From positions 1 to 57,903 of the forward strand of contig CAZQMO010000006.1 of assembly GCA_964594755.1 (NCBI GenBank): DNA of 57,903 nucleotides. Direction: 5' to 3'. The position numbers were made by a program, and so were the translations under genes. The notes under the pieces were generated by a model. The model was not told the DNA's origin. It ran no database searches and was given only the letters and a program-made list of their open reading frames with translations. This DNA is from an uncultured Candidatus Saccharibacteria bacterium (GTDB lineage: Bacteria > Patescibacteriota > Doudnabacteria > UBA920). Positions 11,654 to 57,903 of this stretch are shown here, piece after piece (the first letter of the stretch is position 1; each line of letters begins with the position of its first letter).

Positions 11654-12325
11654 ATGCAAAATACCGCACAACTCACACTGAACCAGAAAATTGCCAACTT
11701 GTTGGCAGCGAAGCCAGTTATTTTACAAATCTTGCGCTTTGGGGCAATCGGTACCCTGAACACAGCGCTGGATTTTATTATTTTGAACTATGTGACAGAA
11801 AGTTTCGGGGTAGTGAGCGGGGTTTCTTTGGGCCTACTCAACATTATTAGCTTTAGCGCGGCAGTAATTCAAAGTTATTTGTGGAATCGGGCATGGACCT
11901 TTGCTAGCTTCAACCTTACACCTTTCTCTAATGCATTTCGCTTAGTGGTTGTCGGGGCTTTAGGGTTAACAGCTTTCTTATTAGTCATTTTCGGTGGTTT
12001 GCAAAACGCGAGTACTAATTATTATTTACTCATTTTAATCGTCTTTATCGTAGCTGAAATAATCATTTGGTACGGTTTTGGTTTGAAGTTGTCGAGCAAG
12101 AACGAACAAGGTGTTGGCCAACAATTTACAGTTTTCCTTTTCATCAGTTTAGTAGGATTACTAATAAACAGCGGCATTGTGGCATTAGCCTCCACTGCCT
12201 TAGCACCTTCACTGTCTAGCTTAATTAACACCGCCAGCATTAAAAATGCTGCGAAAATCTTAGCTACCGGCGTATCTCTAGTCTGGAACTTCCTTGGTTA
12301 CAAGCTGATTGTGTTCAAAAAGTAG
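11654..12325 (+). CDS. GtrA-family flippase-like membrane protein (duplicated GtrA repeats)
   Basis: ILRFGAIGTLNTALDF, SYLWNRAWTF, second repeat FLFISLVGLLIN...WNFLGYKLIVF. Confidence 0.85.
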   Translation: MQNTAQLTLNQKIANLLAAKPVILQILRFGAIGTLNTALDFIILNYVTESFGVVSGVSLGLLNIISFSAAVIQSYLWNRAWTFASFNLTPFSNAFRLVVVGALGLTAFLLVIFGGLQNASTNYYLLILIVFIVAEIIIWYGFGLKLSSKNEQGVGQQFTVFLFISLVGLLINSGIVALASTALAPSLSSLINTASIKNAAKILATGVSLVWNFLGYKLIVFKK

Positions 12326-14120: not shown

Positions 14121-15767
14121 ATGTTTGAAGACAAAAATAAAACTATAATGGCCGCGGTAATTGGATTCGCAGTTTTGGCCTTGGTTGTTGTCACTGTTTG
14201 GGAACCTGGGAGTTTATCCTTCCGTGATCCCACTGATTATGAGGAACAAGCTCGTTTGGCTCAAGAAGAACTCGAGCAGTACCGCGAACTGTTGGCTTCT
14301 ATTGAGCCAAATGTAGAAGCTAGTCAGCAGTTCTTGCAGAAAGTGGCAACCGAAGATTTGGTGCGAGAGGAAGTAGAAACAGCTTTGCAAACCAACCAAA
14401 GGATCACAATCCCACAAGTTGCTAATTCAGAAATAAATATCGCCAACCGTGATGATCGTGACTTTGTAGTCAATTACCTGAACGACACTCGTTCTATGAT
14501 GGCGAATTATTCAGAGTCAATTAAGGGAAGCGTTGATGACTTGTTTGCGCCCACTGGTAGTCCATCCGAATTGGCTCGTGCCGAAGCTTTGACAAATGAT
14601 TTTGTCAGTAATTGGAAAACGGTCAGTGTACCACCGTCAGCGGCAGAGCTACATAAGGCTAGTTTGGTTGCCCTGGATCAGTATGGAGATGTATTTACAG
14701 CGGCCAAAGACTACTCGAGTGTCCAGACCGAACAACCATGGTCAACGGTCTATAACAGGTATGCAGTAATTGATAACCGTTTAGCTACAGTTAAAACCGA
14801 ACTCGAAAAACTTAACGCCACCTTTGCGTTTGCGCCCCAAGAAGTAGAGTTACCTGATTTTAGTTTAGTAAAAACTGCCCAAGCGCAATTTGGCTTTGGT
14901 ACTATAGTCACCATAGACTGGCAGATGATTCTTTATGAAGGGATTCGTACTGGTCTAGCTCGTTCCTTCGCGCAATTTAGTATCAACATGATTGACAAGC
15001 TGGTGGGGCATATCGAAAAGAACTTTGCAATTGCCAGCCAACTTTATTATTCCAACGAACTTGGCCGTTTCTATTCGGTTGAGTACATGCAAAAGTTCGT
15101 ATCTGATCCATTAGATAGGGATATTATTTCTAAGTTTATACCAGAATATTTTTGTGTAAATCCGGACGGCCGGCAACTGCGTGATATTTTCGTTGCCAAA
15201 GCCAGGGAAAATGTCGGAACAGATTTAGTTATTAACCCATCTGACCCTGATTTCTTGCAGAAACTGGCTCGTCTTGGAGCTGATGAAAAAAATTATCCAC
15301 TCTGGTGGGAAGGTTATTATCAATCCTTAGCAGCACAAACTAAAGCAGAGGCAGACAGAGCTGCCACTAAAGAAGTGGTCAGTCCAGGTTTAAAGAGTGG
15401 TCGTGATATCGTGAATACTCAGATTCAGAAGACAGTTTCTTCAATTTTAGGGGTCCAGGAATCGGCCATTAGTGGAGCTATGCAACTTGGTACTAATAAC
15501 GCCGAAAACATTGCCAGTCAGTTAGTGGCCAGCATAGTTCAAAATTTGGTGAATAAGTTCATCTTTACCCCGTTATCCGGCGGGCAAACTTCTGGCCCGA
15601 GTGGTATTGGGATTATTGCTGAACGAAATGTCTGTTTGGGTACTGCGCAAATTAAACCATTAATTCCACTTCCTGAAGGTGGCTACCAAAATCCTGACCG
15701 ACCAACAGTTCCGCCACAAACCAGTGATCCAGGTAATTACCCTGGTACAGGTTTACCGCCGCGTTAA
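14121..15767 (+). CDS. Membrane-anchored extracellular hypothetical protein
   Basis: N-terminal TM, long helical body, Pro-rich tail. Confidence 0.75.
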   Translation: MFEDKNKTIMAAVIGFAVLALVVVTVWEPGSLSFRDPTDYEEQARLAQEELEQYRELLASIEPNVEASQQFLQKVATEDLVREEVETALQTNQRITIPQVANSEINIANRDDRDFVVNYLNDTRSMMANYSESIKGSVDDLFAPTGSPSELARAEALTNDFVSNWKTVSVPPSAAELHKASLVALDQYGDVFTAAKDYSSVQTEQPWSTVYNRYAVIDNRLATVKTELEKLNATFAFAPQEVELPDFSLVKTAQAQFGFGTIVTIDWQMILYEGIRTGLARSFAQFSINMIDKLVGHIEKNFAIASQLYYSNELGRFYSVEYMQKFVSDPLDRDIISKFIPEYFCVNPDGRQLRDIFVAKARENVGTDLVINPSDPDFLQKLARLGADEKNYPLWWEGYYQSLAAQTKAEADRAATKEVVSPGLKSGRDIVNTQIQKTVSSILGVQESAISGAMQLGTNNAENIASQLVASIVQNLVNKFIFTPLSGGQTSGPSGIGIIAERNVCLGTAQIKPLIPLPEGGYQNPDRPTVPPQTSDPGNYPGTGLPPR

Positions 15768-22493: not shown

Positions 22494-22495
22494 TA

Positions 22496-22603
22496 TGTCA
22501 TTCCTGGCGCGCTTCACGAAGTGAAGGCCGACCGGGAATCCATTAGACTTCTAGTGGATCCCCGGTTCTCGCCGCTTTACAAGCGACTCGCCCGGGGATG
22601 ACA
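22496..22603. repeat. 108-bp palindromic element, TGTCATTCC...GGGATGACA ends
   Basis: Same termini and GGGAATCC/GGATCCC core as 1885-1950, with longer internal hairpins. Confidence 0.85.
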
Positions 22604-22612
22604 GGAGAAAAT

Positions 22613-28677: not shown

Positions 28678-28908
28678 ATGGTGGAATTAGGAATTTGGGA
28701 ACACTACAAGGGTGGCCGATACGAAGTAGTAATCAATGCCTTACTAGAAAACAGTGAAGAACCTGCAGTAGTTTATCGAGCTTTGTATGAAAACAACAAG
28801 TCAGAATACTGGATTCGGACCGAGCAAGATTTTTTAGCTATGGTTGAAGTCGCAGGCCAACAAGTACCAAGATTTAAATTAGTGGAGCTTCATGGCAAAG
28901 ACTTATAA
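28678..28908 (+). CDS. DUF1653-like small protein
   Basis: HYKGGRYEV...VVYRALY...WIR...F pattern. Confidence 0.75.
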   Translation: MVELGIWEHYKGGRYEVVINALLENSEEPAVVYRALYENNKSEYWIRTEQDFLAMVEVAGQQVPRFKLVELHGKDL

Positions 28909-36690: not shown

Positions 36691-37251
36691 ATGGAGATTA
36701 CGCGTAGAAAGGCTCTCTACTTATTTTTAAGCTCATTGCTAGGCATGATGCTGGTGTTAATGTTTCATCGCTCAGTTTTTGTTATTTACGAAATTTTGGG
36801 TGATTTTTTCCCGCGGCAGCAATGGCTAAACCTTCCGTATTATCATGTGGCGATTTCAGATTTTCTAACAATGTTATTAGCGATGTTTATTGGCGGTTGG
36901 TATGGTATTTGGCTAGGCCTGCATTGGTATAAGATTGTTTACGAAGACAGGCAGGTTCGCTCTTGGTTCCATGGTTTTGTCCCGCACGCTTGGCGGTCTC
37001 ATAAGGTTAAGGACAATCCGAGCCAGGCCGCTGCCACTGGCATGCCTCGCAAGATTGTGGCAACCTCTAACTCAGATGATGTGTTTCAAACTATGCGCAC
37101 AACAGGCATCAAGCCAGTCTGGAGTTTTGATGATTTTAAAAAAGTTGAAACCAACGAGACACCCAAAAAGCGCGTAGTTAAAAAGCGTACTGTCAAAAAG
37201 CGCGTAGTTAAAAAGACAGCTAAGAAAACTTCTGAGCCGGAAGCGGAGTAA
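36691..37251 (+). CDS. Membrane protein with Lys-rich C-terminal repeats
   Basis: Two TM segments; tail KKRVVKKRTVKKRVVKKTAKK with a 21-bp exact repeat (37165, 37195). Confidence 0.75.
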   Translation: MEITRRKALYLFLSSLLGMMLVLMFHRSVFVIYEILGDFFPRQQWLNLPYYHVAISDFLTMLLAMFIGGWYGIWLGLHWYKIVYEDRQVRSWFHGFVPHAWRSHKVKDNPSQAAATGMPRKIVATSNSDDVFQTMRTTGIKPVWSFDDFKKVETNETPKKRVVKKRTVKKRVVKKTAKKTSEPEAE

Positions 37252-44291: not shown

Positions 44292-44374
44292 TTGAAAAAT
44301 GGGTGAAAGTGGGGTATACTGACTTCAAGTGGAATGAAGTGGGGGAAAGTGGGGATAAGTGGGTGGATAAGTGG
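44292..44374 (+). promoter_or_regulatory. mraZ promoter overlapped by a MraZ-box array
   Basis: TTGAAA(44292)-17-TATACT(44315); AAGTGG at 44307, 44327, 44337, 44347, 44357, 44369. Confidence 0.85.
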
Positions 44375-44414
44375 ACAACTCAAACCATACAGATTTCTAG
44401 AAACTAAAAGTAAC

Positions 44415-52268: not shown

Positions 52269-52331
52269 ATTGTTTAGTTAATAATCTTGGCTCCAGTATA
52301 ACAAAAAATCGCCCCGAAGGCGATTAGTTAT

Positions 52332-52406
52332 TGGCTGGGGTACCAGGATTCGAACCTGGGAATGAGCGGACCAAAACCGCTTGCCTTACCACTTGGCTAT
52401 ACCCCA
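52332..52406 (-). tRNA. tRNA-Gln (TTG), CCA encoded
   Basis: TGGGGTA acceptor, AGCGG-TTTTGGT-CCGCT anticodon arm, CCAGG-TTCGAAT-CCTGG T arm, TACCCCA-G-CCA; 75 nt. Confidence 0.97.
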
Positions 52407-52530
52407 TTACGTTAAATTTTTCACTGACCTGGCTATTTGTCCGCTGAGCGGACCTCTATGATGAACGGCTTACCGGCGTAAGCCTATGGCGCTTGCCTAC
52501 CTCCGCCAGTTGGCGGATGGCTATACCCCA
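52407..52530 (-). repeat. tRNA-Gln-derived 124-bp repeat unit A
   Basis: Retains tRNA blocks TGGGGTATAGCCA, GGTA-GGCAAGCG, GTCCGCTCA and CCAGGT in order, separated by three hairpins; lacks the TTCGA loop and acceptor 3' strand. Confidence 0.88.
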
Positions 52531-52552: not shown

Positions 52553-52581
52553 ATGATACCGAAAATACTGGTTTTTGGCAA
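52553..52581 (-). promoter_or_regulatory. Promoter for repeat unit A plus tRNA-Gln
   Basis: Minus strand TTGCCA(52581)-17-TATCAT(52558-52553). Confidence 0.7.
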
Positions 52582-52631
52582 GAATGCGCGCGTTTTTGTA
52601 TGGTATAATTTACCTATATTTAACAAGATTT

Positions 52632-53492
52632 ATGCCTATCTCAAGTCCTAAGCGTAGCAGTAATTGGAATTACGGTGGTAATAACTGGAAGCTGTCTCGC
52701 TCCAAAATTGAATTATTCATGCAGTGCCCGCGTTGTTTTTATTTAGACAACAAACTGGGTATTCGCCGGCCGTCTATGCCAGCGTTCTTGCTTAACTCAG
52801 CCGTTGACTCACAACTTAAAAAAGAATTCGATGTTCATCGCGCCCAAGGAACCAAGCATCCGTTTCAAGATGAATATGGGATTGATGCAGTTCCGGCGCA
52901 ACACGACAAAATAAATACTTGGCGAGAAAACTTTGAAGGGGTGCAGTACTTCCACGAGCCTACTGGGTTGTTGGTTAGCGGAGCGATTGATGACCTGTGG
53001 CTTAACAGCCAAGGAGAATATATAGTAGTTGACTACAAAGCTACTGCTAAAGACGCACCGGTAAAAGAGTTGAGCGGTATTTGGCACGAAGGCTACAAGC
53101 GTCAAATGGAAATTTATCAGTGGCTACTTCGCAACAACGACCTGAAAGTTTCAGATACAGGTTACTTTGTGTACTGTACGGGTAAAGCTGACCAAGAAGC
53201 TTTTGATAAAACTATTGAGTTTGATGTAGTGTTAATTCCTTACACCGGTAAAGCTGATTGGGTGGAAGGTATTCTGTTTAAGATTAAAGATTGTTTGGAT
53301 AGCTCAAAGATTCCAGATAGCGGTTCAGATTGTGAATATTGTGGTTGGTACTATGCTCGTGCTTCCGAAGAAGGTGAGTCTGTTGATTCAATTCCCCAAC
53401 CTCGGTTAAAACCAGATTTAAAAACCAAAATCGCTCGGAAAACTTCTAAATCTAAAAAGTTAACCGATTCTGGTTCAACTCCTTTATTTTAA
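52632..53492 (+). CDS. PD-(D/E)XK nuclease, Cas4/AddB-like
   Basis: LSRSKI, CPRC, GAIDDL, VVDYKAT, QMEIY, C-terminal C..CEYC; ATG 52632 after TGG-TATAAT. Confidence 0.8.
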   Translation: MPISSPKRSSNWNYGGNNWKLSRSKIELFMQCPRCFYLDNKLGIRRPSMPAFLLNSAVDSQLKKEFDVHRAQGTKHPFQDEYGIDAVPAQHDKINTWRENFEGVQYFHEPTGLLVSGAIDDLWLNSQGEYIVVDYKATAKDAPVKELSGIWHEGYKRQMEIYQWLLRNNDLKVSDTGYFVYCTGKADQEAFDKTIEFDVVLIPYTGKADWVEGILFKIKDCLDSSKIPDSGSDCEYCGWYYARASEEGESVDSIPQPRLKPDLKTKIARKTSKSKKLTDSGSTPLF

Positions 53493-53546
53493 TTGAGTTT
53501 ACTTACACTTAGGCATATAATTAAGAAGAGCATTAATAAGACGATT

Positions 53547-54743
53547 ATGAACAAATATGCGCGCATTTTAGGAGGCATTGGTGCGGGAATTATGACTTTG
53601 GTCATGGTTTTGGCACTAAGTACCCCTGCTTTGGCTGCAGAATTTTTGAAACCAGATGAAAGCGGGAATATCACGGTTTCAGCAGATAGTCAGTACCGCA
53701 ATCTTTATACTGCTGGTGGTAGTGTGCTGATGAACAATTCCACCTTAGGTGATGCCGTTGTGGTTGGCGGTGATGTTACAATTGAAGGTAATGTTGAAAG
53801 TGACCTTATAGTAGCTGGCGGTAGTGTGTACATTAACGGTCCAGTTGGTGGAGATATTCGAGTAGCTGGTGGTGACGTAATTATCAATAATTCAGTTGGC
53901 GGTGATGTAGTCGGTGTTGGCGGAACAATCCGTTTGAGTGATCGAGCTGTGGTGGGCGGTGATGTTGTAGTAGCTGGCGGTCAAGTTGAAGTGCTTGGCC
54001 CAGTTGCAGGAAAACTTACAATCCTTGGTGAGATGGTTACCATGAATAACGCTGTCGCTGGAGCAGTAGCAATTACTGCTAGTGAGAAGTTATCTCTTGG
54101 CGAAAAGACTAATTTTGCTGGCGAAGCAAAATACAAGTCGTGGCAGGAAGCCCAGATTGCAGACGGTGCCCAAACTGGCAATTTGCAGTACGAACAAATT
54201 CCTCGTAAACAGAACGAAGGCGGCAAAGCATTGGCCGGTGTTTTGACTTTAGGGTTTGTATTCAAGCTCTTGGCCATGATTTTGGCAAGCTTGGTACTGC
54301 TCAAGCTGTTCCCAAAGACCAGCACCGAGCTGGTTACTCATCTTAAAGAAAACGTATGGGCTAATTTGGGTATCGGCTTCGTTGCATTTATTGCCATGCC
54401 AATTATGGCGCTACTGTTGCTGTTCACCTTTGTTGGGTTTTACGCGGCTTTGATTGTGTTCGTTCTCTGGCTGCTATGGTGCATGGTCGGCGCATTGGTG
54501 GGTATGGTCTTTGTCGGAGCTTGGATTAATCAGAAGTTTATCAAGAAGGAACAACTGACTATTGATTGGCAAGCAGTCGTGCTGGGTGTTGTTATTGTTT
54601 CTATCTTGGCGTTGATCCCAGCCATCGGCTGGCTAATCAGCTTATTGATTGTTTGGGTAGGTTTTGGTACAATCATTCGGCATATTACTGCGATCAGTCG
54701 CGGTCAACAAGCAACACCAACAATTAATAACGAAACTGTATAA
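53547..54743 (+). CDS. Membrane protein with bactofilin-like beta-helical repeats
   Basis: Signal peptide, repeated GDxxVAGGxVxIxGxV, five C-terminal TMs. Confidence 0.8.
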   Translation: MNKYARILGGIGAGIMTLVMVLALSTPALAAEFLKPDESGNITVSADSQYRNLYTAGGSVLMNNSTLGDAVVVGGDVTIEGNVESDLIVAGGSVYINGPVGGDIRVAGGDVIINNSVGGDVVGVGGTIRLSDRAVVGGDVVVAGGQVEVLGPVAGKLTILGEMVTMNNAVAGAVAITASEKLSLGEKTNFAGEAKYKSWQEAQIADGAQTGNLQYEQIPRKQNEGGKALAGVLTLGFVFKLLAMILASLVLLKLFPKTSTELVTHLKENVWANLGIGFVAFIAMPIMALLLLFTFVGFYAALIVFVLWLLWCMVGALVGMVFVGAWINQKFIKKEQLTIDWQAVVLGVVIVSILALIPAIGWLISLLIVWVGFGTIIRHITAISRGQQATPTINNETV

Positions 54744-55552: not shown

Positions 55553-56734
55553 ATGAAACAGGGAAGTAAGACAACTAAAAAGCGCGTACTTATGGCGCTT
55601 TCAGGCGGAATTGATTCTGCTGTTTCGGCGTATTTGCTGCAAAAAGCGGGTTACCAAGTTGAAGCCGCATTTATGAAAAACTGGTCCTCAACGGCTGGTT
55701 TAAAATATTCAGATTGTCCTTGGCTGATTGACCGCCAAGATGCGTTGCGCGTGGCTGCTCATTTGGGTATCCTTATGCACACAGTGAACTACGAAAAAGA
55801 ATATAAAAAGAGCGTAATGGATTATTTCTTTAAGGAATATCAGGCAGGACGCACGCCGAATCCCGATGTGATGTGCAATAAAGAAATCAAATTCAAAGTT
55901 TTATACAACTGGGCCATGAAGAACGGTTTTGATTACGTGGCAACCGGTCATTACGCCCAAGTCAAAAAAATAAAAAATAAGGCAGGGGAGGATTACCAAC
56001 TTAAGCGAAAATCCTCTGTCATTCCCGCGAAGGCGGGACTCCAGATTCCGAATCAAGCTCAGGATCACAATGGGTATACTTACCAACTCGTGCGGAGCAA
56101 AGATGAATTCAAAGATCAAACTTACTTCATTTATAATATCCAGCAATCACAACTCCCCCACTTGCTGTTCCCTATCGGCTCAAAGAAAAAATCCGAGGTT
56201 CGCGCTTTGGCCAAGAAGCTTAAGCTTCCGAATGCGGATAAAAAAGAAAGCATGGGGCTCTGCTTTGTGGGTCAGATTCGCTTAAAAGATTTTTTGTCAC
56301 AAAAAATTAAACCAAAAACCGGCCCAGTTGTTACCCAAGATGGCCAAAAGATTGGCGAGCATCAAGGCTTGCCGTATTACACGATTGGCCAGCGCCAAGG
56401 GATTAACGTTGGTCAAGGCGGACCCTGGTATGTGGTGAGCAAGAATCTAAAAACTAATACTTTGGTAGTTACCAATGACCCTAATGATCCGGCTTTGCAG
56501 ACTAAGGAGATTGAAATTCATAGCGTAAATTGGATTAGCAAGCCGCAATCATTTCCAGCTAAGCTTGTTGGTCGCTATCGCCATCAAGGCCAATTAGAAA
56601 AACTGACCATTATTCCAAAGGGCCGCAACCATTATGAAGTTAAGTTTGCCAAGCCTCAGACAGCTGTAGCTAGTGGCCAAAGTTTGGTGCTATACGACAA
56701 AAAAGTCTGCGTGGGCGGCGGGGTAATAAACTAA
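55553..56734 (+). CDS. mnmA: tRNA 2-thiouridylase MnmA
   Basis: SGGIDS PP-loop, TPNPDVMCN, ATGHYA, KDQTYF, ESMGLCF, YYTIGQRQG, SGQS. Confidence 0.97.
   Translation: MKQGSKTTKKRVLMALSGGIDSAVSAYLLQKAGYQVEAAFMKNWSSTAGLKYSDCPWLIDRQDALRVAAHLGILMHTVNYEKEYKKSVMDYFFKEYQAGRTPNPDVMCNKEIKFKVLYNWAMKNGFDYVATGHYAQVKKIKNKAGEDYQLKRKSSVIPAKAGLQIPNQAQDHNGYTYQLVRSKDEFKDQTYFIYNIQQSQLPHLLFPIGSKKKSEVRALAKKLKLPNADKKESMGLCFVGQIRLKDFLSQKIKPKTGPVVTQDGQKIGEHQGLPYYTIGQRQGINVGQGGPWYVVSKNLKTNTLVVTNDPNDPALQTKEIEIHSVNWISKPQSFPAKLVGRYRHQGQLEKLTIIPKGRNHYEVKFAKPQTAVASGQSLVLYDKKVCVGGGVIN
55993..56088. mobile_element. 87-bp in-frame insertion in mnmA carrying a TGTCATTCCCGCGAAGGCGGG palindromic element
   Basis: TTACCAACT direct repeat at 55993-56001 and 56080-56088; element at 56017-56069 resembles 1885-1950. 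Confidence 0.85.
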
Positions 56735-57607: not shown

Positions 57608-57636
57608 TTGAAAATAACTGCAATCTAGATTATAAT
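57608..57636 (+). promoter_or_regulatory. sigma70 promoter upstream of the tRNA-derived array
   Basis: TTGAAA(57608)-17-TATAAT(57631). Confidence 0.75.
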
Positions 57637-57644
57637 AGTCCTAC

Positions 57645-57699
57645 TGTCATTCTGGCAGCTACAAACGAGCCGTAGGCGAGTGCGGGCTAGCCGGAATCT
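57645..57699. repeat. Half copy of the TGTCATTC...GGAATC palindromic family
   Basis: ATTCTGGC/GCCGGAAT stem enclosing GCC-GTA-GGC; no terminal GACA. Confidence 0.6.
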
Positions 57700-57711
57700 A
57701 TTTGTAAATGA

Positions 57712-57903
57712 TGGGGTATAGTCATCCGCCAACTGGCGGAGGTAGGCAAGCGCCATAGGCTTACGCCAGTAAGCCGTTAATCTTAGAGGTCCGCTTTGAG
57801 CGGACAAATAGCCAGGTCAGTTAAAAATTGAAATCGATGGGGTATAGCCATCCGCCAACTGGCGGAGGTAGGCAAGCGCCATAGGCTTACGCCAGTAAGC
57901 CGT
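57712..57903 (+). repeat. Tandem tRNA-Gln-derived repeat units B (57712-57837) and C (57838 to window end)
   Basis: 126-bp period; near-identical to the reverse complement of 52407-52530. Confidence 0.9.

Follow-up and report, generated by a model that had tools for sequence, protein, structure and literature searches.

What is the repeated element in which this 57,903-nucleotide stretch of DNA (hereafter the window) comes to an end, and how much of it is a tRNA? The initial annotation described a promoter, TTGAAA-17-TATAAT, followed by half of a TGTC palindrome and by two units, B and C, at a 126-bp period, and all of these are indeed found. The sigma-70-type promoter occupies positions 57608..57636 of the + strand, upstream of the B/C array, with its hexamers at 57608-57613 and 57631-57636 on either side of a 17-nt spacer, and matches the consensus at 11 of 12 positions. 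It is kept in the closest relative, locus L001, where identical hexamers with identical spacing lie at the syntenic place (12083-12111). A 75-nt leader (57637..57711, +) separates the promoter from unit B and contains, at 57644-57698, a half copy of a small palindromic repeat, TGTCATTCY...GGRATC. As L001 has only ∼20 nt in the place of the leader and is devoid of the leader insert, the repeat is regarded as a lineage-specific insertion.

Unit B (57712..57837, +) is 126 nt long and scores 76.9 bits against R1, a covariance model built from seven units. It opens with a part derived from tRNA-Gln (57712-57752, +), which includes a D stem (57721-57723/57745-57747) and a hairpin inserted in the D loop, H1 (57725-57740). 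A CCATA joiner (57753-57757) leads to the hairpin P2 (57758-57775), a second joiner with TAGAG at its end (57776-57788) connects P2 to the hairpin P3 (57789-57805), and an AU-rich linker (57806-57837) completes the unit. Unit C (57838..57903, +) is partial, as the window end falls just after its P2: H1 is found at 57851-57866, P2 at 57884-57901, and the 3′-incomplete unit scores 46 bits over model positions 1-54, with one base different from B. The two units repeat with a period of 126 bp and share 95% identity across 76 nt. The window has three occurrences of a 42-nt core pattern that was absent from all of 100 shuffles.

The third copy, unit A (52407..52530, 124 nt, R1 score 85.2 bits), is located on the − strand immediately 5′ of a genuine tRNA-Gln(UUG) gene, with H1 at 52517-52502, P2 at 52484-52467, P3 at 52453-52439 and the linker at 52438-52407. 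The tRNA gene (52332..52406, −) was called by ARAGORN as the sole tRNA in the window, scores 63.4 bits with the Rfam tRNA model and is evidently the source of the tRNA-derived parts of the unit. A promoter-like site, TTGCCA-17-TATCAT (52553..52581, −), lies upstream of unit A and is conserved in L001, and an intrinsic terminator (52307..52325, −), consisting of an 8-bp stem followed by TTTTGTTATA, closes the operon composed of promoter, unit A and tRNA. Divergent from the unit A promoter is a gene for a PD-(D/E)XK nuclease with a C-terminal cysteine cluster (52575-53492, +; Pfam). This gene is syntenic with tRNA-Gln(UUG) even in L008, whose UUG locus has no unit, and for this reason it is probably unrelated to the units.

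Comparison of A, B and C confirms that the hairpin stems are invariant and that the differences fall in loops, in linkers and at one D-stem base of unit B. The stems of H1 (TCCGCC/GGCGGA), P2 (GGCTTAC/GTAAGCC) and P3 (GTCCGC/GCGGAC) are the same in all three copies, whereas the P2 loop is GCCG or GCCA and the P3 loop is TCA or TTTGA; two positions of the P2–P3 joiner and the AU-rich linkers vary too. The D-stem change in unit B is from C to T at 57722 and still allows a U-G pair. These differences are few, which makes the pattern within the window only weakly significant, and the weight of the argument consequently rests on covariation across species. The term ‘inserted hairpins’, which the initial annotation applied to all three, is appropriate for H1, which sits in a tRNA-like context; in contrast, P2 belongs to a conserved non-tRNA module and P3 is half tRNA-derived.

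Alignment with the neighbouring tRNA discloses how the unit is assembled. It opens with positions 1-30 of tRNA-Gln, which cover the 5′ acceptor strand, U8/A9, the D stem and, of the anticodon stem, the 5′ strand. In place of positions 31-35 stand CCAUA, P2 (GGCUUAC/GUAAGCC in the window) and GUU-N-UAGA, after which the tRNA resumes with positions 36-45 (GGUCCGCUCA). Beyond position 45 the tRNA gives way to GCGGAC, which folds back on positions 37-42 to form P3; the 5′ strand of this hairpin is therefore tRNA sequence and the 3′ strand is new, and an AU-rich linker of ∼32 nt comes next. P2 is a hairpin of 7-9 bp across species, in which the sequence changes and the pairing is kept. The D stem, GCC/GGC, behaves as in a tRNA and is retained in all 19 distinct units with 96.5% pairing. 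The D loop exists in three states: native, with a 16-nt hairpin (H1, the state of the window units) or with an 85-nt insert.

The remainder of a tRNA is missing. The 5′ acceptor strand TGGGGTA is present, but no complementary 3′ strand exists within the unit, and TACCCCA beside a T arm occurs in the window only at the real tRNA. The units possess the AU-rich linker instead of a T arm with a GTTCGAATC-type loop; the sole exact occurrence of GGTTCGAATCC in the window is at 52356, in the true tRNA, and the one further site within a single mismatch, at 28821, is unrelated. There is no 7-nt anticodon loop on a 5-bp stem either, its place being taken by the CCAUA-P2-GUU...UAGA insertion in lieu of positions 31-35. 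ARAGORN calls the real tRNAs only and none of the units, and the Rfam tRNA model matches no unit at E up to 10 in the window or at E up to 1 in L089. Rfam 15 as a whole yields no family at gathering thresholds and, at E up to 10, only two noise-level matches in the unit region. The unit, then, is tRNA-derived and is not a tRNA. The earlier label ‘tRNA-like’ suits its 5′ third and the 3′ strand of the anticodon stem, and does not extend to the T arm and 3′ acceptor strand that it lacks.

Each unit also bears three UAG triplets, within UAUAGYC, CCAUAGG and UUAGAGG (AUAGAGG in unit A), for instance at 57719-57721, 57756-57758 and 57784-57786. The triplets lie in three different reading frames, two of them inside conserved motifs, and may be due to chance or constitute a recognition motif.

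Homologues of the units were sought by blastn against the loci surrounding relatives of mnmA. These MnmA relatives are Patescibacteria, recorded under the labels Doudnabacteria, “Saccharibacteria” or Patescibacteria MAGs, and the closest of them, L001, has an MnmA that is 86% identical. At the syntenic site of L001, TTGAAA-17-TATAAT is followed by two units, which repeat every 112 bp and have a native D loop lacking H1, and then by a tRNA-Gln(CUG) gene and a terminator; a single unit precedes the tRNA-Gln(UUG) of L001. Tandem units are present in five independent assemblies (L001, L058, L081, L089 and L093). Two different pattern scans covering 185,579 species, with a single genome for each, both yielded an identical set of 10 stretches, all from this Patescibacteria clade, and a scan of metagenomes contributed 4 stretches belonging to these lineages. 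The exact pattern of the unit variant of the window had no match in the genome contigs searched. No units were found in viral contigs, which argues against a phage origin. A P2–P3 pattern stripped of the tRNA part matched 9 stretches outside the clade, approximately the number expected by chance, the best of which scored 15.4 bits with R1 (E 0.048); as these matches are not significant, a P2–P3 module independent of tRNA-Gln was discarded. The family is real and narrow, encompassing about ten species in addition to the window, with the module always fused to the 5′ part of tRNA-Gln.

When R1 was tested across 1.25 Mb of related loci, units scored 46-108 bits and genuine tRNA-Gln genes no more than 33 bits. 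Base pairs were counted in a model-guided alignment of 19 distinct units from about ten species, a procedure adopted because MAFFT and RNAalifold mis-aligned the variable-length stems of the raw units; the counts come from a small sample, and fitting the alignment to the model biases them towards pairing. With these provisos, 98.2% of cells in the whole structure pair, against 20-45% when the partners are slid, and the observed covariation score was reached by none of 500 shuffles. In P2, both partners have changed in six of the seven pairs, and pairing extends to 100% of cells; the stem takes at least seven distinct sequences with perfect pairing, among them CUUAC/GUAAG, CCUGC/GCAGG, UUUGC/GCAAA and UCCCCGCC/GGCGGGA, and the P2 of L082 includes a U-G pair, which is complementary only as RNA. 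P3 is 97% paired, and its new 3′ strand tracks the tRNA-derived strand, with CCGCU/AGCGG in the window and CCGUG/CACGG in L070. The non-tRNA bases G29 C30 C31 A32 T33 and A62 G63, which lie within the GCCAUAG and UAGAG motifs, are invariant, whereas the linkers cannot be aligned between species. The unit and its tRNA are 95% identical between the window and L001, while most flanking genes are 76-85% identical. The suggestion that the units are structured RNAs is supported by these homologues, whose stems exhibit compensatory changes.

A second, anticodon-like pairing, S1:S2 (positions 27-30 with 40-43), is 92% kept and is mutually exclusive with P3. The simplest source of its covariation is the adjacent tRNA, the sequence of which is copied by the tRNA-derived parts of the unit. 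In predicted folds of isolated units the probability of P2 and P3 is near 1 and that of the anticodon-like stem near 0.

The arrays share a common architecture. In all 16 for which downstream sequence is available, 1-3 units are followed, 27-71 nt further on and in the same orientation, by a tRNA-Gln gene of either the CUG or the UUG type. Units recur with a period of 111-126 nt, which rises to 197 nt when the 85-nt insert is present in the D loop, and in complete arrays a terminator is found only after the tRNA and never between the units and the tRNA. In many relatives tRNA-Gln(CUG) is situated 1-2.5 kb downstream of mnmA; ARAGORN detects no tRNA-Gln(CUG) in the window. Because all 16 arrays end in this fashion, the CUG gene lies near mnmA elsewhere and it is absent from the window, the B/C array very probably terminates in tRNA-Gln(CUG) within approximately 60-200 nt beyond the end of the window. 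The second real tRNA that had been anticipated there is thus backed by the relatives, as in the L001 succession of promoter, two units, tRNA-Gln(CUG) and terminator. Likewise, the central proposition of a promoter-driven array of conserved, structured, tRNA-derived units is supported by the promoter conserved in L001 and by the compensatory changes.

The observed anatomy, homology, conservation, covariation and genomic context can be brought together in the proposal that the unit is a lineage-specific structured RNA module which arose by partial duplication of tRNA-Gln and has been selected as a 5′ leader of tRNA-Gln operons, an account that we consider probable on balance. The element is probably functional, and from the promoters and terminators we infer that the units are transcribed and processed. 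Promoter, units and tRNA-Gln would form a single transcript, in which RNase P would cut at the 5′ end of the tRNA and further cuts in the AU-rich linkers would liberate units of ∼85-100 nt ending in the stable P3 hairpin. The released RNAs would present the D-stem/anticodon-stem side of tRNA-Gln without being chargeable and, as half-mimics acting in trans, might bind or titrate a factor that recognizes this side of tRNA-Gln. Such a function, as half-mimic or decoy of tRNA-Gln, is the most plausible role that can be envisaged for the units, albeit a tentative one. Copy numbers that differ between arrays, and that in some cases changed very recently, fit a dosage-sensitive product. That the units amount to a new class of bacterial regulatory RNA, in which non-chargeable half-mimics of tRNA-Gln, supplied at adjustable dosage by the leader of the tRNA-Gln precursor, serve as decoys or titrators for a protein reading the D and anticodon stems, is an unlikely extension of the same idea. 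The protein might then belong to the non-discriminating GluRS/GatCAB route to Gln-tRNA, or be a modification enzyme or a nuclease toxin that acts on the anticodon arm.

An incomplete tRNA copy next to a tRNA gene is usually written off as a scar of recombination, and the units might likewise be neutral: functionless partial tandem duplicates of tRNA-Gln, or remnants of recombination in the anticodon region, shaped by unequal crossing-over and gene conversion. Arrays have between 1 and 3 copies, certain tandem copies (those of L001, for example) are 100% identical even in their linkers, and the tRNA-derived parts of every unit match the adjacent tRNA, an agreement that could stem from gene conversion rather than from a need to mimic. 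The tRNA-Gln loci of this clade are also recombination hot spots, with 3′ fragments flanking islands in L001 and L058 and 5′ fragments of other kinds in L005, L014 (−) and L016. It also counts against a selected module that the family is small, with 19 distinct sequences, and that some copies look decayed. The unit at the L001 UUG locus has a 1-nt deletion that weakens P2, the L014 lineage is almost without P2, and L094 is devoid of the 5′ acceptor strand while the rest of its unit is kept. However, GCCAUAG, P2 and UAGAG have no donor for gene conversion, and yet they are conserved where the neighbouring intergenic DNA no longer aligns. The diversity of perfectly paired P2 stems and the changes by which the new strand of P3 compensates those of the tRNA-derived strand are also at odds with a neutral account, although template switching in replication can also create and maintain perfect hairpins. 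A neutral origin and persistence of the units is, in our estimation, rather unlikely.

If instead the unit acted in cis, its strands would compete with those of the tRNA itself and so tune either the folding of the pre-tRNA into a cloverleaf or the RNase P cut site. Every unit offers an identical 5′ acceptor strand as well as anticodon-stem strands, units always lie on the same strand as the tRNA and at the short distance upstream given above, and the mutually exclusive S1:S2 and P3 pairings are both largely kept. In equilibrium folding of whole precursors, the 3′ acceptor strand of the tRNA pairs with the 5′ strand of the first unit in four of six cases (probability 0.76-0.98), in a model that ignores tertiary structure and co-transcriptional order and favours large multiloops. 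Against competition in cis speak the near-zero probability of the anticodon-like stem in isolated units, the L094 lineage, which lacks the 5′ acceptor strand, and the lack of a sensing element or terminator between units and tRNA; it is improbable. Very unlikely is the notion that the palindromes act as DNA, whether as hairpins for a single-strand recombinase or as operators for a regulator. P2, P3 and H1 are perfect inverted repeats in DNA, and they occur in a recombinogenic region where small palindromic repeats have been inserted nearby. P2 nevertheless varies freely in sequence with its pairing kept, inclusive of the RNA-only pair in L082, the module lacks the genomic dispersal expected of a mobile element, and a Pfam scan of three window neighbours turned up no recombinase, its sole match being the PD-(D/E)XK nuclease. 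An assembler that had duplicated a single unit at the contig end could conceivably have produced the array, since the window ends inside a repeat and related assemblies have NN gaps in exactly such repeats; B and C, however, differ at 57722 and in their upstream linkers, and tandem units recur in the five independent assemblies, which leaves an artefact extremely unlikely.

Among the nearest known parallels to the units is the tyrT locus of Escherichia coli, where, reportedly according to Egan & Landy and Rossi et al., 178-bp repeats carry part of tRNA-Tyr. There, as here, tandem repeats stand beside a tRNA gene, hold a piece of that tRNA, are products of unequal recombination and are transcribed with the tRNA, as is presumed for the units. 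The tyrT repeats, though, are downstream and contain the 3′ end of the tRNA, whereas the units are upstream and contain the 5′ part; moreover, the units carry a non-tRNA hairpin module conserved with covariation over about ten species, and no conserved RNA structure is known for the tyrT repeats. Another E. coli example, the 3′ETS of leuZ, is a piece of a tRNA precursor that acts as a sponge for sRNAs by base-pairing. Like the proposed unit RNAs, it is part of a tRNA transcript with a function of its own after processing; it is an unstructured trailer, whereas the units are structured, tRNA-derived, repeated and placed in the 5′ leader. Pseudo-tRNAs, exemplified by tRNA-Other of Bacillus cereus, form a further group for comparison. 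So do tRNA-like structures, among them those of viruses (PMC8127992). Pseudo-tRNAs and tRNA-like structures resemble the units in being derived from, or imitating, a tRNA for a non-decoding use; they keep a mimic of the acceptor and T arm and are often aminoacylated, while the units are without both and display only the D-stem/anticodon-stem side.

CRISPR arrays and ToxI share with the units a promoter followed by head-to-tail repeats that would be cut into unit RNAs. The initial annotation had called the array CRISPR-like without variable spacers: the comparison is correct as regards layout and the absence of unique spacers, the 32-nt linkers being near-identical, and goes no further than layout. 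The repeats of the units measure 111-126 nt, as opposed to 28-37 nt in CRISPR, and in the window a 126-nt period with near-identical linkers between conserved cores discounts a CRISPR array. Cas genes were looked for in a Pfam scan of three window neighbours, one of which is the nuclease at 52575-53492, and the gene directly behind the complete arrays is a tRNA instead of a cas gene. A type III toxin–antitoxin system of the ToxI kind was rejected on the grounds that complete arrays lead into tRNA-Gln and a terminator with no toxin gene; in L001 the next gene after the array and tRNA-Gln is an Hsp70-like ORF on the opposite strand. Neither does a riboswitch or T-box leader agree with the lack of an Rfam match, the absence of a U tract after P3 and terminators that come only past the tRNA. 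Inspection of the sequences for attC-like or integron sites, k-turns, tetraloop-receptor motifs and a T-box specifier disclosed no features conserved across homologues. A small ORF (ATG GGG TAT ... CCA TAG) is not conserved in homologues either; in UBA926 its frame is disrupted by a net insertion of 86 nt in the D loop. A split tRNA was also discarded, as no separate 3′ half complementing the units was found in the window.

Fragments of tRNA genes, or att repeats, left by integrated genetic elements have been reviewed (PMC9897764). Akin to the units, they are partial, non-canonical tRNA sequences beside an intact tRNA gene. These scars are, however, 3′ fragments separated from the tRNA by kilobases and situated where an island ends, on its distal side, whereas the units consist of 5′ parts plus a conserved module, placed a few tens of nucleotides upstream of the tRNA with no island in between. 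An att-type integration fragment was accordingly excluded as the identity of the units, which hold the 5′ part and abut the tRNA, while true 3′ fragments occur separately in L001 and L058. The latter fragments, at L001 17959-17990 (+) and L058 11984-12015 (+), comprise the T arm, the 3′ acceptor strand and CCA, with GACCTAACTG in front. Found downstream of the intact tRNA-Gln(CUG), at a distance of 5.5 kb in L001 and 1.1 kb in L058, they bear the signature of an island integrated at the tRNA 3′ end. The L001 island has ORFs for Hsp70-like, methyltransferase, APH-kinase, NUDIX and glycosyltransferase proteins and no integrase.

No description of this element was found in the literature searched. 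The units are best filed as a conserved 5′-leader module of tRNA-Gln operons, absent from Rfam 15, and as a new variant among non-coding elements of tRNA origin. The compensatory evolution of their non-tRNA hairpin module, which always accompanies tRNA-Gln, suggests that the leader of a tRNA precursor was turned into a functional RNA. Should the unit RNA be stable and bind a factor that handles tRNA-Gln, it would represent a simple form of tRNA mimicry, tunable by dosage, in minimal-genome organisms with few known regulators. The arrays have a practical implication as well: such repeats break assemblies, an intact tRNA-Gln(CUG) just past a contig end may be missed, and inventories of tRNAs could be distorted in consequence. 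Two metagenome assemblies have NN scaffold gaps inside repeated tRNA-Gln 5′ sequence, at about 5500 in L091 and about 3440 in L094. That unit arrays break or confuse assemblers is probably why the window stops inside unit C.

Further rearrangements of tRNA-Gln were noticed in the clade. In UBA926 (L002 2265-2350; L089 3189-3275) the first unit of each array contains the 85-nt D-loop insert, which is structured, has no Rfam match and includes a degenerate copy of the 5′ end of the unit itself (CGGAGTATGGACAAGG). A second class of fusions joins the 5′ part of tRNA-Gln to another structured 3′ module, at L014 10381-10448 (−) and L016 10213-10280 (−), and L005 harbours a truncated pseudo-tRNA with its break in the T loop (15255-15357, +). 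The fusions in L014, L016 and L005 are all upstream of tRNA-Gln genes, and 5′ partial copying of tRNA-Gln seems to recur in this clade.

Repeats of other kinds are also present in the window. Besides the half copy in the leader of the B/C array (57644-57698), the TGTCATTCY...GGRATC family is represented by a full palindrome of ∼110 bp (22495-22604) and by a short copy in the mnmA frame (56016-56045); the stretch of mnmA at 56002-56081 has no counterpart in the mnmA of L001. A 416-aa ORF at 53493-54743 (+) contains numerous degenerate GGDV/VAGG-type repeats within its sequence (direct-repeat families D1-D6). Short tandem repeats are found at 37165-37215, where 15 nt are repeated in 3.4 copies, and at 44327-44375, where AAGTGGGGGAT is repeated in 3.5 copies.
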